Source: Lutibacter sp. (GTDB lineage Bacteria > Bacteroidota > Bacteroidia > Flavobacteriales > Flavobacteriaceae). From it: a DNA stretch of 15,238 bases. The notes under the pieces are model-generated. The model had not been told where the DNA came from. It saw only the letters and a list, made by a program, of their open reading frames with translations, and made no database searches. The stretch covers positions 1 through 15,238 of the forward strand of contig DAIQBF010000048.1 in the NCBI GenBank assembly GCA_036781305.1, read 5' to 3'. The translations under genes were made by a program, and so were the position numbers. Below are positions 1,675 through 12,356 of this stretch, in pieces (the first letter of the stretch is position 1; each line of letters starts with the position of its first letter).

Positions 1675-2757
1675 ATGAATTCCAATACAATAACCTACGG
1701 AATTTTAAAAGCAATAGCCATTATTACAGGCGTTTTATTGCTGCTTTACTTTTTGTATGAAGTGCAATCGGTTATCGCTTATATAGCAATTTCAATCGTT
1801 ATTGCGTTAATTGGAAGTCCAATTATTCACTTTTTAAAACGAAGGCTGAAATGCCCAAATACCTTGGCTGTTATCATCACAATACTGTTATTCTTAGGAA
1901 TTTTAGCTGGAATAATAAGTATGTTTATTCCGCTCATCATTAAGCAGGGCGAAAATTTATCATTGTTAAATATTAAAAAACTTCAAATAAATTTTGAATA
2001 TTTATTAAATCAGATTAACGATTACTTTTTAATGCGTAATATCGATATTTTAGACGAATTAAAACATGCCGATTTGTTTAAAAATGTTAAAGCTATTCCC
2101 GATTTATTCAATGCCGTTATCGGAACCATAGGAAGCTTAAGTATTGGATTGTTTTCTGTAATTTTCATCACTTTCTTCTTCATGAAAGATACGCATATTA
2201 TGGAAAATTCCTTGTATGTATGGGTTAATGACAAGAATGAGCAAAAACTGAAAAACTCTTTAATGTCAATCAACCATTTATTGTCGAGATATTTTATTGG
2301 CTTGGTTTTTCAAATTACAATTCTATTTATAATTTATACTACTTTTTTATTAGTTTTCGGCGTTGAAAACGCCATTGTAATCGCTTTTTTATGTGCATTA
2401 CTAAATTTAATACCTTATGTTGGTCCATTAATTGGAGGAATTCTAATGCTCTTTTTAACAATGAGCAGTAACTTGGCCCAAGACTTTCAAACAGAAATAT
2501 TGCCAACCACCATTTACGTGATGATTGGATATGTTTTCGCCCAACTTATTGATAATTTTTTAAGTCAACCCCTAATATTTTCAAATAGTGTAAAATCACA
2601 TCCATTGGAAATATTTTTAATAATCATCATTGGCGGAATTTTATTTGACATCACAGGAATGATCATCGCCGTGCCAACCTACACTGCCATAAAAGTAATT
2701 TTAAAAGCATTTTTGGCCGATAACAAAATTGTAAAATTAATGACCAAAGATTTATAA
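1675..2757 (+). CDS. AI-2E family transporter (PerM/UPF0118-type permease)
   Basis: The 360-aa product is strongly hydrophobic with about 8 predicted TM segments. It carries the family-typical LLNLIPYVGPLIGG segment and a C-terminal IIAVPTYTAIKVI helix. Stop is TAA. Confidence 0.8.
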   Translation: MNSNTITYGILKAIAIITGVLLLLYFLYEVQSVIAYIAISIVIALIGSPIIHFLKRRLKCPNTLAVIITILLFLGILAGIISMFIPLIIKQGENLSLLNIKKLQINFEYLLNQINDYFLMRNIDILDELKHADLFKNVKAIPDLFNAVIGTIGSLSIGLFSVIFITFFFMKDTHIMENSLYVWVNDKNEQKLKNSLMSINHLLSRYFIGLVFQITILFIIYTTFLLVFGVENAIVIAFLCALLNLIPYVGPLIGGILMLFLTMSSNLAQDFQTEILPTTIYVMIGYVFAQLIDNFLSQPLIFSNSVKSHPLEIFLIIIIGGILFDITGMIIAVPTYTAIKVILKAFLADNKIVKLMTKDL

Positions 2758-2801
2758 GTTTAACCAGATTCTTAAAACAAGAAGCTATAAAATTATATTT
2801 T

Positions 2802-2945
2802 GGGCTTGCCTGCCCTTTTGGTGGGCGTTCCCCTGCGGGTCGGGCTTTTCGTTGCAATCCGTCATTGCGGAGCGTGGCAATCTGTTGAATATATTACTTC
2901 ATAAACTCGCAACGCCGGGATTTCCTCTGCAATCCCTAACGCAGC
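2802..2945. repeat. cluster of GC-rich short repeat modules (gggcttttcgttgcaatcc / gtcattgcggagcgtggcaatc / gggatttcctctgcaatccctaacgc)
   Basis: This is a GC-rich island in an AT-rich gap. Two direct tgcaatcc modules lie around 2853-2870 and 2917-2936. An inverted copy of the gcaatccctaacgc-type motif reappears at 12536-12550 (gcgtccctaggattgc). Confidence 0.6.
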
Positions 2946-3086
2946 TTAAATTACGATAGCTGATTTACGATTTTAGAATAAGAAATCTTAGATTCTGGAT
3001 TTGGTTTTTAATATTTTACTTGCTTTTAATCATAGAATACACAAGATGATTTATGAAATTAGAATTTAAAAGACTTAAAACTTTTT

Positions 3087-3128
3087 AGCGCGATTTGCGG
3101 TTTTTATTTGCGTGCTTTGCGGTTAAAT
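3087..3128. repeat. two tandem ttRgcgNgNtttgcggtt modules (ttagcgcgatttgcggttttta / tttgcgtgctttgcggttaaa)
   Basis: Read directly. The same cttgcggttaaa tail recurs at 8242-8254, downstream of the GxxExxY cassette. Confidence 0.55.
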
Positions 3129-3189
3129 TTTTTGGTTCGGCGTTTTTTTATAATTTTTTCTTGCTTTTAGCCTCCGCTAGCGCGAGCGC

Positions 3190-3347
3190 AATGTCATTAA
3201 GTTAAGCCTTTAATGTCTTTATTTTGTCATTCCGAGGTACGAGGGATCTCATTATGCTAAGCTATTTGATGCGATTCCTCCTTTGTCGGGCACGAGCGAT
3301 AGCGAACTGGCGAAGCAATGACAAATATTCCCTTAACTTAATGACAT
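3190..3347. mobile_element. MITE-like nested-palindrome element, copy A (17-bp terminal inverted repeats, 125-bp core)
   Basis: IR-L aatgtcattaagttaag (3190-3206) pairs with IR-R cttaacttaatgacat (3332-3347), matching 16/17. The core has its own arms, tttgtcattccgaggtacgaggg (3223-3245) and gattcctcctttgtcgg...aatgacaaa. A second copy lies at 12126-12257. No ORF of its own. Confidence 0.65.
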
Positions 3348-3352
3348 CGAGC

Positions 3353-3474
3353 GCGAGCGTCCCGCTCGTGACTACAAGTAATTTTAGGGATTTTTTATTT
3401 CCTTTATTTGCAATTGTGTATAGCTCCAAAAAAATCAGGTTACTAGTGTTATTGGGTACGAGCGGGACGCTCGC
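3353..3474. repeat. perfect 17-bp inverted repeat pair (gcgagcgtcccgctcgt / acgagcgggacgctcgc) with an 88-bp spacer
   Basis: Segments 3353-3369 and 3458-3474 are exact reverse complements. A degenerate equivalent (14/17) lies at 12262-12278 / 12309-12325. Confidence 0.7.
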
Positions 3475-3532
3475 ACCAGCGAGAGGAAAAACCTCAAAAA
3501 AGTATTTCCGCTACACTCCATTACGCAAGATA

Positions 3533-3560
3533 AATTACGTTTTACGAATTGCGAATTACG
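3533..3560 (+). repeat. tandem heptamer array (aattacg, ttttacg, aattgcg, aattacg)
   Basis: Four contiguous 7-bp units were read directly. Related attacga motifs occur at about 2950-2975. Confidence 0.6.
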
Positions 3561-3664
3561 ATTTTAAAAAATGCTGTTAAGATAAATTTAAGCCTGTATA
3601 AATTAGCGATAATTTTTTTGTTTTTAATATTTAAACCTTAAATTTACAATAAAAAATTTGCATT

Positions 3665-4213
3665 ATGAAAAATGAAATTATGATTCCAGATGAAATAATT
3701 ACCAATAAAATATATTTAATCAGGGAACAAAAAGTTATGTTGGATGAAGATTTGGCTGAACTCTATAAAGTAGAAACCAAACAGTTAAAAAGACAGGTTC
3801 GCAGAAACATAGAACGTTTTCCCGAAGATTTTATGTTTGAACTCTCCAAAATTGAATTCGAAAACTTGAGGAGCCAATTTGGCACCTCAAAATGGGGAGG
3901 AACTCGTTATGCGCCTATGGCTTTTACCGAACAGGCCTGTCCTGAGCGTAGCCGAAGGAGTGTAGCTATGTTATCAAGTGTTTTAAGCAGCCAAACTGCC
4001 ATAAAAGTAAATATTCAAATTATAAGGGTATTTACAAAGATAAGACAAATGTTCACAGATAATTTAAGTTTAAAACTCGAAATTGAGGAAATAAAAAAGA
4101 AACTCTCCCATCAAAATAAAAATATTGAACTTGTATTTAGCTATTTAGATGAACTGATAGAGAAGAAAGAAAACCAAAAACCAAGAATTAAAATAGGCTA
4201 TAAAAAAGATTAA
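3665..4213 (+). CDS. ORF6N domain-containing protein (KilA-N-like DNA-binding domain plus C-terminal coiled coil)
   Basis: The N-terminal segment IYLIREQKVMLDEDLAELY..ETKQLKRQVRRNIERFPEDFMFEL...WGGTRY.P.AFTEQ...AMLSSVL.S..AIKVNIQIIRVF matches the ORF6N family pattern as I recall it. The C-terminus is Lys/Glu-rich and helical. It contains an in-frame repeat insertion (see the 3936-3959 feature). Confidence 0.8.
   Translation: MKNEIMIPDEIITNKIYLIREQKVMLDEDLAELYKVETKQLKRQVRRNIERFPEDFMFELSKIEFENLRSQFGTSKWGGTRYAPMAFTEQACPERSRRSVAMLSSVLSSQTAIKVNIQIIRVFTKIRQMFTDNLSLKLEIEEIKKKLSHQNKNIELVFSYLDELIEKKENQKPRIKIGYKKD
3936..3959 (-). repeat. 24-bp GC-rich repeat unit inserted in-frame in the ORF6N gene
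   Basis: The unit cctgtcctgagcgtagccgaagga is 62.5% GC. Removing it converts cag g..gt gta into cag ggt gta (Q-G-V), which is the expected FTEQGVAML family motif. Its 19-nt core, 3940-3958, matches the reverse complement of 6636-6654 at 17/19. Confidence 0.7.
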
Positions 4214-7654: not shown

Positions 7655-7670
7655 TATTTAAAAATTATTA

Positions 7671-7708
7671 CACAAAGACACACCGAGGAACACAAAGATT
7701 CACAAAGC
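7671..7708 (+). repeat. tandem 10-mer array (cacaaagaca caccgaggaa cacaaagatt cacaaagc), left arm flanking the GxxExxY gene
   Basis: A 10-bp periodicity was read directly. The array ends 3 nt before the ATG at 7712. It is the reverse complement of the array at 8087-8124. Confidence 0.75.
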
Positions 7709-7711
7709 AAA

Positions 7712-8083
7712 ATGACTGAAAATGAAATAGCAAGTGTTATTATTGGAAAAGCAATAGCTGTGCATAGGGAACTTGGACCGGGATTATTGGAATCTACTTA
7801 CCAAGAATGTCTTTTTTATGAGTTAAAAAATGACAATTTAAAGGTTGAAAAAGAAATAGCATTGCCAATTATTTATAAAGATATTAAATTGAATCACGGA
7901 TACAGAATTGATTTATTAGTTGAAAATAAAGTGGTTATTGAATTAAAAACAGTAGAGTTTTTAAATGATGTGCATACGGCTCAAATATTAACATACATGA
8001 AACTAGGAAATTATAAATTAGGTTTATTATTGAATTTTAATGTAAAACTTTTAAAGGAAGGTATCAAAAGATTTGTACTGTAA
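7712..8083 (+). CDS. GxxExxY protein (PD-(D/E)xK nuclease-like superfamily)
   Basis: The 123-aa product has the eponymous motif GPGLLESTYQECL and a DLLVENKVVIELK core (D...ExK-like). The size and layout are typical of the multicopy GxxExxY family. Confidence 0.85.
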   Translation: MTENEIASVIIGKAIAVHRELGPGLLESTYQECLFYELKNDNLKVEKEIALPIIYKDIKLNHGYRIDLLVENKVVIELKTVEFLNDVHTAQILTYMKLGNYKLGLLLNFNVKLLKEGIKRFVL

Positions 8084-8086
8084 AAT

Positions 8087-8124
8087 CTCTGTGAATCTTA
8101 GTGATTCTTTGTGAATCTCCGTGT
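8087..8124 (-). repeat. inverted 10-mer array (gtgaatctta gtgattcttt gtgaatctcc gtgt), right arm flanking the GxxExxY gene
   Basis: It starts 4 nt after the stop. Segment 8106-8124 (tctttgtgaatctccgtgt) matches the reverse complement of 7690-7708 (gctttgtgaatctttgtgt) at 17/19. Confidence 0.75.
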
Positions 8125-8265
8125 AATAACAACTAACTGGATATCCAAAAAGAATTAAAAAGTTATTTCACAAAGACGTAAAAAGAGAAAATACCTAAAT
8201 ACAGTACATATCTAAAATGACAATTATAAAAACTCAGAAACCTTGCGGTTAAAAAAACGAAAATC

Positions 8266-10986: not shown

Positions 10987-11105
10987 GGAAGTCGGAAGTC
11001 GGAAGTTCGAAAACGTAAGTCGGAAGTCCGAAGTCGGAAGACGGAAGACGGGAGACAGAAGTCGGGAGAAAGGAGACGGAAGTCCGAAGACAGAAGTTCA
11101 AAAAA
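10987..11105 (+). repeat. degenerate tandem heptamer array, 17 units of SGAAGWC (ggaagtc-type)
   Basis: Units stay in phase every 7 nt from 10987 to 11105 (ggaagtc ggaagtc ggaagtt cgaaaac gtaagtc ggaagtc cgaagtc ggaagac ...). The array begins 7 nt after the alpha-subunit stop. Confidence 0.85.
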
Positions 11106-11144
11106 GGAATTTGTATTATGTAAAATGGATTTTGAATTTCGAGT

Positions 11145-11168: not shown

Positions 11169-11190
11169 TTAAATTTTGAATTTTGGATTT

Positions 11191-11260
11191 CACTTCTTTA
11201 TCCTTCAGACTTCGGACTTCGGTCTTCGGACTTCCAGCTTCTAACTTTCAACTTTACAAT
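11191..11260 (-). repeat. inverted heptamer array (tcggact-type, about 10 units) ending 9 nt before the fdhD start
   Basis: Units read cacttct ttatcct tcagact tcggact tcggtct tcggact tccagct tctaact ttcaact ttacaat. Segment 11216-11235 is the reverse complement of 11078-11097 at 19/20. Confidence 0.8.
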
Positions 11261-12046: not shown

Positions 12047-12067
12047 GTTGGAAAGTTAAAAAATAGA

Positions 12068-12088
12068 CCGAAGTCCGAAGTCCGAAGT
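12068..12088 (+). repeat. heptamer array, ccgaagt x3 (perfect), just after the fdhD stop
   Basis: Three perfect units were read directly. They are complementary to 11209-11222 (acttcggacttcgg) upstream of fdhD. Confidence 0.8.
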
Positions 12089-12125
12089 TCATTTCTAGAA
12101 TCAAATCAAACTCAATCGCTAGCGC

Positions 12126-12257
12126 AATGTCATTAAGTTAAGGGAATATTTGTCATTCCGACAAAGGAGGAATCGCATTAAATAGCTTAACATGATGTGA
12201 TTCCTCGTACCTCGGAATGACAAAATAAAGACGTTAAAGTCTTAACTTAATGACATT
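12126..12257. mobile_element. MITE-like nested-palindrome element, copy B (perfect 17-bp terminal inverted repeats, 98-bp core inverted relative to copy A)
   Basis: IR-L aatgtcattaagttaag (12126-12142) and IR-R cttaacttaatgacatt (12241-12257) are perfect. The core 12143-12240 is the reverse complement of the copy-A core minus a 27-bp segment. The outer flanks (cgctagcgc on the left, gagcgcgagcNtccNgctcgtgact on the right) have the same orientation as in copy A. Confidence 0.65.
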
Positions 12258-12356
12258 GAGCGCGAGCTTCCAGCTCGTGACTGCGCAAATTTAACAGCTA
12301 ACAAAAGCACGAGCGTGACGCTCGCGCCAGTCACCAGTGTGAGGGTTAAACCTAAG

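Follow-up and report, generated by a model that had tools for sequence, protein, structure and literature searches.

Opposite insertions of an IS4-type miniature element into a second hairpin repeat of Lutibacter as the probable origin of a flipped core between matching flanks

A 15,238-nt stretch of DNA from Lutibacter sp. (GenBank assembly GCA_036781305.1, contig DAIQBF010000048.1; hereafter the window) contains two loci at which the same small palindromic element lies in opposite orientations between flanks that keep a single orientation. The closest described systems are insertion sequences (ISs) of the IS4 subgroup and ISs that target repetitive extragenic palindromic (REP) sequences. Elements of the IS4 subgroup are 1400–1650 bp long, have ends of the form -AATR--------WTW and come with direct repeats of 10–13 bp (De Palmenaer, Siguier & Mahillon 2008, Table 1, PMC2266710), and a "spectacular apparent insertion specificity" has been noted for some of them (PMC2266710). 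The REP-targeting ISs include IS1397 and ISKpn1 (IS3), IS621, ISPpu9 and ISPa11 (IS110), and ISRm22 (IS4 family) (Tobes & Pareja 2006, PMC1525189); ISs at a fixed position of a REP hairpin are known from five families, ISRm22 being the IS4-family example. Targets of the Tn5 type are palindromes whose duplicated stretch begins and ends with G/C pairs. Here we report that, with a probability of about 90%, two copies of an IS4-family MITE (a miniature transposable element with inverted repeats), which we call MITE-1, inserted, one in each orientation, at the same 10-bp position within a second hairpin element, MITE-2, so that no inversion is needed. The case is one of ordinary selfish-DNA or transposon behavior and not of a DNA switch.

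Both copies of MITE-1 lie in intergenic DNA (Table 1). Their 18-nt end, CAATGTCATTAAGTTAAG, occurs four times in the window, as two inverted pairs at 3189–3206 (+) and 3332–3349 (−, one mismatch) and at 12125–12142 (+) and 12241–12258 (−); shuffled sequences give an expectation of 0.00. The plus strand of copy A is 91% identical to the minus strand of copy B over 111 nt. The flanks, in turn, are direct repeats of each other, with 96% identity between 3181–3206 and 12117–12142 on the left and 93% between 3332–3373 and 12241–12282 on the right. An earlier note on this DNA, made from the sequence alone, had thus placed the strings correctly and had rightly described a reverse-complemented core between co-oriented flanks. 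The nested palindrome that it proposed is also found: the terminal repeats of MITE-1 form an outer stem that encloses an inner hairpin of about 30 bp, and with −52.5 kcal/mol (z = −5.2) for copy A and −55 to −60 kcal/mol (z = −10 to −11.6) for copy B, both nested-hairpin folds lie far below shuffled controls. As expected of MITEs, these elements of 134 and 161 bp are bounded by 18-bp terminal inverted repeats (TIRs) and have no coding capacity.

Table 1. Coordinates of the two MITE-1 copies, their target duplicates and the two MITE-2 elements in the window
Feature	Position	Strand	Description
MITE-1 copy A	3189..3349	+	161 bp; ends CAATGTCATTAAGTTAAG ... CTTAACTTAATGACATCG; 159–161-nt subtype with a 27-nt internal insert
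27-nt insert GCACGAGCGATAGCGAACTGGCGAAGC	3290..3316	+	in copy A, not in copy B (alignment)
Copy A left 10-bp duplicate AGCGCGAGCG	3179..3188	+	identical to 3350–3359; single in the intact MITE-2 of L230
Copy A right 10-bp duplicate AGCGCGAGCG	3350..3359	+	perfect, 10/10
MITE-1 copy B	12125..12258	−	134 bp; short subtype; opposite orientation to copy A
Copy B left duplicate, truncated	12121..12124	+	AGCG remains; 6 bp (CGAGCT) gone relative to the expected AGCGCGAGCT
Copy B right duplicate AGCGCGAGCT	12259..12268	+	same hairpin position as copy A
MITE-2 long form	3176..3480	+	REPIN-like doublet of inverted hairpin units; left arm interrupted by MITE-1 copy A
MITE-2 long-form units	3353–3369 (+), 3458–3474 (−)		hairpins; left unit GCTAGCGCGAGCG-TCC-CGCTCGTGAC, right unit GGTACGAGCGGGACGCTCGCACCAGC; fold z = −5.9
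MITE-2 short form	12118..12331	+	units 12262–12278 (+) and 12309–12325 (−); spacer about 25 nt; z = −4.1

To define the insertion rule, 100 MITE-1 copies with both flanks were sampled. The base outside the 17-mer was C on the left in 97 of them and G on the right in 98, and the 17-bp inverted repeat named in the earlier note, although present, therefore falls one base short of the element ends, which read C-AATGTCATTAAGTTAAG...G. The copies are bordered by a direct repeat of 10 bp, perfect in 37 of the 100 and matching in at least eight of ten bases in 69; no other length fits, so that the target duplication has the fixed length expected for a MITE. The suggestion that gagcgc/agcgc represents the target-site duplication does not hold, since this string is too short; in copy A the true duplication is the 10-bp AGCGCGAGCG. 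The left flank cgctagcgc, which had been recognized as shared between the two loci, is indeed shared but really consists of the outer tip of MITE-2 and a part of the duplication. In copy B, the left and right 10-mers agree in seven of ten bases when compared position by position. The preferred target reconstructed from the sample is the palindrome SSC-T-NN-A-GSS. Flanks of most copies are unrelated to those in the window, and nearly all are small GC-rich palindromes; together with the 10-bp duplications, this is the picture of plain MITE insertion that the earlier note had named as the alternative to inversion. Relative to the asymmetric target CCCCCTAACCCCCGAAGGGGG, seven insertions are forward and at least five reverse, and the orientation of MITE-1 on asymmetric targets is close to random.

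The right flank shared by the two loci is a hairpin unit, GCGAGCK-TCC-MGCTCG, of which the window contains four copies against 0.01 expected. These units form two convergent pairs, 3353/3458 and 12262/12309, and each pair makes up one MITE-2 element. The same architecture was found in 3.3 Mb of other DNA that was compared, in which neighboring hairpin units separated by less than 400 bp pointed toward each other in 15 cases and away from each other in none. Both MITE-1 copies are inserted at AGCGCGAGCK, directly 5′ of the loop of the left hairpin of MITE-2; as in the long form, the left hairpin arm of the short form is broken, in this case by copy B. The flank that the earlier note had suspected to belong to another repeat family is, accordingly, the hairpin end of MITE-2. 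The same hairpin position has been hit elsewhere in both orientations, as in copy A at L143, L171 and L367 and as in copy B at L184 and L229, and full-length ISs occupy it at L321, L330, L333 and L374.

Orthologous loci in relatives provide the states before insertion. The formate dehydrogenase (FDH) gene of the window is 92–93% identical at the nucleotide level to that of the metagenome-assembled genome (MAG) STE_174 (L230) and shares about 90% identity with its counterparts in SMAG_U7328 (L231) and clean449 (L233), and in a neighbor-joining tree of FDH the window and these three MAGs form one cluster; the source of the window is Lutibacter. At site B, SMAG_U7328 and clean449 both carry MITE-2 with a single uninterrupted GCTAGCRCRAGCTTC..., with neither MITE-1 nor a footprint; the unoccupied site in clean449 reads GCTAGCGCGAGCTTCAAGCTCGTGACT. 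At site A, STE_174 carries an intact MITE-2 (L230 4874–5005) that is 94.8% identical and reads ACTAGCGCGAGCGTCCCGCTCGTGACT. These footprint-free sites are ancestral states and not excisions. The comparison with sister strains that the earlier note had proposed has thus yielded unoccupied sites for both loci.

Site B has also been occupied independently. In C8 (L237), Kmv35 (L242) and the metagenome contig L390, site B holds a MITE-1 that points the other way from the one in the window. The duplication in L390, CGCTAGCGCG/CGCTAGCTCG, lies 4 bp to the left of the window's, and L390 therefore represents a different insertion. L237 and L242 fall into other clades, and their closest neighbors there have neither MITE-2 nor MITE-1 at site B. 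Copy B is only 84–86% identical to the site-B copies of L237, L242 and L390; it is 95.6% identical to non-orthologous copies (L124, L228, L198, L193, L191), some of them from unrelated loci in STE_174 and SMAG_U7328. Site B has therefore received at least two further independent insertions in relatives, and at least three events have taken place at this one orthologous locus when that in the window is included. A separate observation concerns the 150 nt to the right of MITE-1, which are 99.3% identical between C8 (L237 14176–14330) and Kmv35 (L242 8011–8165) despite their different FDH clades; this near-identity suggests either a recent exchange of the intergenic segment or chimeric bins.

MITE-1 belongs to a large family with autonomous members. 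When one genome per species was searched for exact matches to the 17-nt repeat, more than 120 stretches, a lower bound, were recovered from Bacteroidota, Bacillota, Chloroflexota, Pseudomonadota and other phyla; a second scan for the MITE-1 subfamily returned more than 110 stretches, again a lower bound, mostly from Lutibacter and Flavobacterium. Each of three Lutibacter MAGs contains at least 13–14 MITE-1 loci. The many dispersed copies, their unrelated flanks and the unoccupied sites in L231, L233 and L230 identify MITE-1 as a MITE. End pairs 70–344 bp apart are MITEs, whereas those 1.43–1.70 kb apart enclose one long transposase open reading frame (ORF). Full-length elements with the same ends, the autonomous partner that the earlier note had recommended searching for, were found in Lutibacter (L098) and in L066, L046, L004, L094, L052 and others. 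The ORF of L066, from Flavobacterium rhamnosiphilum, matches Pfam DDE_Tnp_1 at 2e-19 and the NCBIfam IS4 model NF033592 with 176.6 bits (cut-off 115), and its Y(2)R(3)E(6)K motif, read directly, is YSQRWGIETFYDRLK. The full-length Lutibacter copy (L098 187–1621) encodes a 441-aa product with the corresponding motif YYMRWGVETSYGADK and is bordered by the duplication CCCTTTAGGG; this transposase gave no match in Pfam but matched NF033592 with 134 bits (same cut-off).

These full-length elements are IS4-family ISs by their single ORF for a DDE transposase with the Y(2)R(3)E(6)K signature, and they fall in the IS4 subgroup by their 10-bp direct repeats and by ends, CAATGTCATTAAGTTAAG, that match -AATR--------WTW. 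MITE-1, with its CAATG........TTA ends and 10-bp repeat, and its full-length relatives of 1.43–1.70 kb resemble that subgroup in all of these features. Unlike its ISs, the window holds only the non-autonomous form, the core of which is unrelated to the parent IS: the shared part between IS and window MITE is limited to about 18 bp of the ends. The nearest named relative, from the IS4-like ISPa1635 family, shares only 33% protein identity. A side result of the survey is that the 17-nt end is exactly conserved in elements whose transposases are only about 25–37% identical and whose hosts span several phyla, for example Streptococcus (L052), Clostridium (L095), Paenibacillus (L100), a Nanoarchaeota MAG (L102) and a Saccharibacteria MAG (L355); the conservation of this IS end is unusually deep.

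The two copies in the window represent different subtypes, which are told apart by the 27-nt insert. The insert-bearing subtype occurs at the unrelated loci L186, L169, L133 and L126 as well, and copy A is 93.75% identical to the non-orthologous copy in L186. The 27-nt segment, which marks a transposing subtype, is also part of another Flavobacteriia repeat. Its core, CGAGCGATAGCGAACTGGCGAAGC, was found outside MITE-1 in the Flavobacterium genomes L182, L222 and L224; the loci listed for the insert are window 3290–3316 and L182, L222, L224, L166 and L073. Outside MITE-1, the motif adjoins an arm, GTCATTCCGA...GGAGG, that resembles the inner hairpin of MITE-1, and the MITE core therefore seems to have been built from another Flavobacteriia repeat. 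This repeat is itself an insertion target.

To account for these findings, we propose that MITE-1 is a non-autonomous derivative of an IS of the IS4 family (IS4 subgroup), in which the 18-bp TIRs CAATGTCATTAAGTTAAG surround an unrelated hairpin core. A DDE transposase, presumably supplied in trans by a full-length copy elsewhere, would bind both identical ends, cut the element out and paste it into a 10-bp staggered cut, by analogy with IS10 and IS50, for which cut-and-paste transposition via hairpin intermediates is established. The enzyme would prefer SSC-T-NN-A-GSS, and the AT-rich genome may supply such targets mainly through small GC-rich hairpin repeats. Because the ends and the target consensus are two-fold symmetric, an insertion in either orientation would be possible; the combination of symmetric ends, 10-bp stagger and palindromic target would explain why the same 10 bp were chosen and why either orientation is seen. 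Two MITE-1 subtypes, one in each orientation, would have entered two MITE-2 copies at the same 10 bp of the left hairpin, which leaves matching, co-oriented flanks around a core that appears flipped; a secondary loss of 6 bp would have shortened the left duplicate of copy B.

This proposal starts from what the data show: the family to which the element belongs, the rule that its duplications follow, the sites that are unoccupied in relatives, and insertion events that are independent of one another. Several points weigh against the proposal. The duplication of copy B is imperfect, only AGCG of its left half being retained, which calls for a secondary loss of 6 bp or for some more complicated history. 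The closest autonomous copy found comes from another Lutibacter MAG, and the window covers its own genome over 15 kb only. Transposition activity, finally, is suggested by unoccupied sites and by the similarity of copies, that is, by sequence comparison. A variant in which copy B arose by inversion from an L390-like insertion was considered and rejected, as it needs an inversion and two deletions (2 and 4 bp), compared with which one insertion and one 6-bp deletion is simpler.

The most obvious alternative is an inversion in situ, in which the DNA enclosed by the 18-bp repeats changes its orientation without leaving its locus, driven by a site-specific invertase or by repeat-to-repeat recombination or template switching, and copies A and B are two states of a switch. 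Invertons and invertible promoters of Bacteroidota are reportedly the subject of the PhaseFinder study of Jiang et al. from 2019, and MITE-1 resembles them in having short perfect inverted repeats around an intergenic segment of 100–150 bp in a member of this phylum; the 18-bp repeats lie 98–125 bp apart, a geometry fit for an inverton. In addition, the relatives L237, L242 and L390 carry the element at site B the other way round, and some members, as read from L167, have what we read as a Bacteroidota-like −7 box, TATTTTTG, pointing inward from one end. Copies A and B, however, are different loci and different subtypes, separated by the 27-nt insert, and not one locus in two states. The opposite copies at site B are independent insertions, as judged from the shifted duplication, the clades that lack both elements and the low identity to copy B, and the window's nearest relatives have an unoccupied site B. 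Four orthologous pairs of MITE-1 copies (L137/L141, L149/L189, L167/L188 and L237/L242) keep their orientation. At the level of assemblies, no locus was found with both orientations and the same junctions. Assemblies of the same population, found by exact protein look-up, agree with the window: a European Nucleotide Archive (ENA) scaffold covers all of copy A in the window's orientation, with a single mismatch elsewhere, and a Logan contig spans left-flank sequence of B, the repeat and the first 11 nt of the core. Neither an invertase nor any other recombinase or transposase gene is present in the 15-kb window, as the earlier note had already stated, and the MITE-1 repeats differ from those of invertons in being transposon ends with target duplications and dozens of copies per genome. 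Flank clustering had also suggested flipped orthologues, L218 versus L167/L188 and L208 versus L197/L153, but these are paralogous loci within the MAGs C8 and C10; their flanks are other repeats and the MITE bodies differ, so that they provide no evidence of inversion. We consider an inversion in situ, the second of two explanations offered in the earlier note, to be unnecessary and very unlikely; the first, a TIR-bounded MITE inserted twice and oppositely into the same motif of another repeat, is the one favored by the IS4 partner, the 10-bp duplication and the unoccupied sites.

Still less credit is due to a composite origin, in which MITE-2 with MITE-1 as passenger was copied as a unit and the orientation of the core is an artefact of assembly in a palindromic repeat. 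L171 is a non-orthologous locus at which the A subtype lies inside a long-form MITE-2, as copying of a unit would produce, and these repeats do interrupt short-read assemblies, as in the Logan contigs, which end inside MITEs. Yet the two MITE-2 copies differ in their spacers (long and short), their MITE-1 copies are of different subtypes, and MITE-2 is found free of MITE-1 at both orthologous sites. As to an artefact, the 18-bp repeat is shorter than assembly k-mers, and the orientation is therefore set by reads; the separate Logan assembly contains the left junction of copy B with its 11 nt of core, and the ENA scaffold contains copy A in full. Homologous recombination between the inverted MITE-1 copies could also have flipped the 8.9-kb segment between them, leaving chimeric copies and explaining the mismatch at copy B. 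The copies are inverted repeats, with 111 nt at 91% identity, that lie 8.9 kb apart, and the duplication of copy B is imperfect. Such an event would break both duplications, whereas that of copy A is perfect (10/10); gene order and orientation over 1–15 kb are colinear with L233, L231, L237, L246 and others, and the unoccupied sites of the relatives have the same flanks on both sides. We regard this inversion as extremely improbable. Insertion of two MITE-1 copies in opposite orientations remains the explanation that we prefer.

How does this locus compare with the known REP-associated elements? Like the REP-targeting ISs, MITE-1 is found at a fixed position in a small GC-rich palindrome, the broken halves of which flank each copy. 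Unlike them, it shows a preference and not an exclusive choice: about 10% of the sampled Flavobacteriia copies lie in this hairpin family and the rest in other GC-rich palindromes. The use of other palindromes and the 4-bp shift in L390 set MITE-1 apart from a type 1 REP association as defined by Tobes & Pareja. A further difference is that the host belongs to the Bacteroidota and not to the Proteobacteria, and that the target is the end of the hairpin doublet MITE-2. REP-targeting ISs are known; the present case adds a member of that kind from Bacteroidota, seen here in the form of MITEs.

The nearest analogues of MITE-2 are REP doublets forming hairpins (REPINs) and bacterial interspersed mosaic elements (BIMEs) (Bertels & Rainey 2011, PMC3116915; Ton-Hoang et al. 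2012, PMC3333891). The likeness to a REPIN is one of architecture: two inverted units of about 26 nt, a short spacer, one long hairpin and convergent pairs only. Differences from REPs are that a 5′ GTAG motif is not evident and that the hairpin is conserved across several classes of Bacteroidota. Classical REPs are species-specific. A RAYT (Y1 transposase), the usual partner of REPIN doublets, was not encountered, although no search was aimed at one. The hairpin unit, of about 26 nt, has the consensus GCTRGYGCGAGCK-TCNC-GCTCGTRMC, and nearly the same hairpin sequence was seen in Flavobacterium, Lutibacter, Chryseobacterium, Pedobacter, Marinifilum, Mariniflexile, Cellulophaga, Cyclobacteriaceae and Chitinophagales. 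This conservation across Bacteroidota classes is the least expected by-product of the analysis. Searches of open full text found no published description of the hairpin, the element or its ends; what they returned was chance matches and one unrelated Cardinium paper. One might speculate, though we rate this as doubtful, that MITE-2 is an undescribed, phylum-wide, REPIN-like mobile family whose left arm is a habitual landing site for one IS4-subgroup lineage and its MITEs, a long-standing relationship of a "parasite of a parasite".

The setting of the two loci is unremarkable. The window is AT-rich, with a G+C content of 26–41%, and its genes are ordinary, among them those for a gamma-glutamyltranspeptidase, an AI-2E transporter, an ORF6N protein, a DUF1697 protein, a THUMP-like methyltransferase, a NuoF-like subunit, formate dehydrogenase alpha and FdhD. 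A scan of the whole window against Rfam returned no family at threshold. An ORF of 118 aa at 3224–3580 (+) starts within MITE-1 copy A, continues through MITE-2 and has no Pfam match; it is almost certainly not a gene but repeat-derived, and ORFs of this kind may be annotated by ORF callers. Around copy A, the DUF1697 gene follows almost directly after the AI-2E transporter gene in several relatives (2757–3665 compared with L239, L241, L243, L245 and L390), and the ORF6N gene (3665–4213) together with the repeat-filled spacer that holds copy A can therefore be described as an indel of about 1.4 kb. In STE_174 (L230 4660–5260), the same spacer contains a truncated MITE-1 end and two copies of another repeat around MITE-2.

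Two further repeat structures were noted. A gene for a PDDEXK_3 protein (7712–8083; PD-(D/E)XK nuclease, 123 aa) is bracketed by 43-nt, CACAAAG-rich inverted repeats at 7665–7707 and 8087–8129, and the whole block 7665–8129 is missing between the NuoF-like and formate dehydrogenase genes in L234, L238 and L240; its appearance is that of a small mobile cassette. Tandem repeats with a 7-nt unit (GGAAGTC/GAAGTCC and variants) form arrays at 10987–11131, 11190–11254 and 12065–12091. They lie 3′ of the formate dehydrogenase gene, with an inverted array at a distance of about 140 nt and a short one immediately ahead of site B; relatives have similar arrays of other heptamers, such as GAAGACG in L237.

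For the biology of the host, nothing is changed by these insertions, and the neighbors (formate dehydrogenase, FdhD, AI-2E transporter) are ordinary. The consequences concern the elements and how they are recognized. MITEs with perfect 18-bp ends mimic the geometry that is sought by inverton finders based on inverted repeats, and a flipped core between matching flanks can come simply from repeated insertion into another repeat. The analysis provides a clean target consensus, SSC-T-NN-A-GSS, together with a 10-bp duplication, for a branch of the IS4 family that has received little study, and among the data are at least three separate insertions into one hairpin at a single orthologous locus; the conservation of the 17-nt end points to an unusually constrained contact between the transposase and the DNA end.

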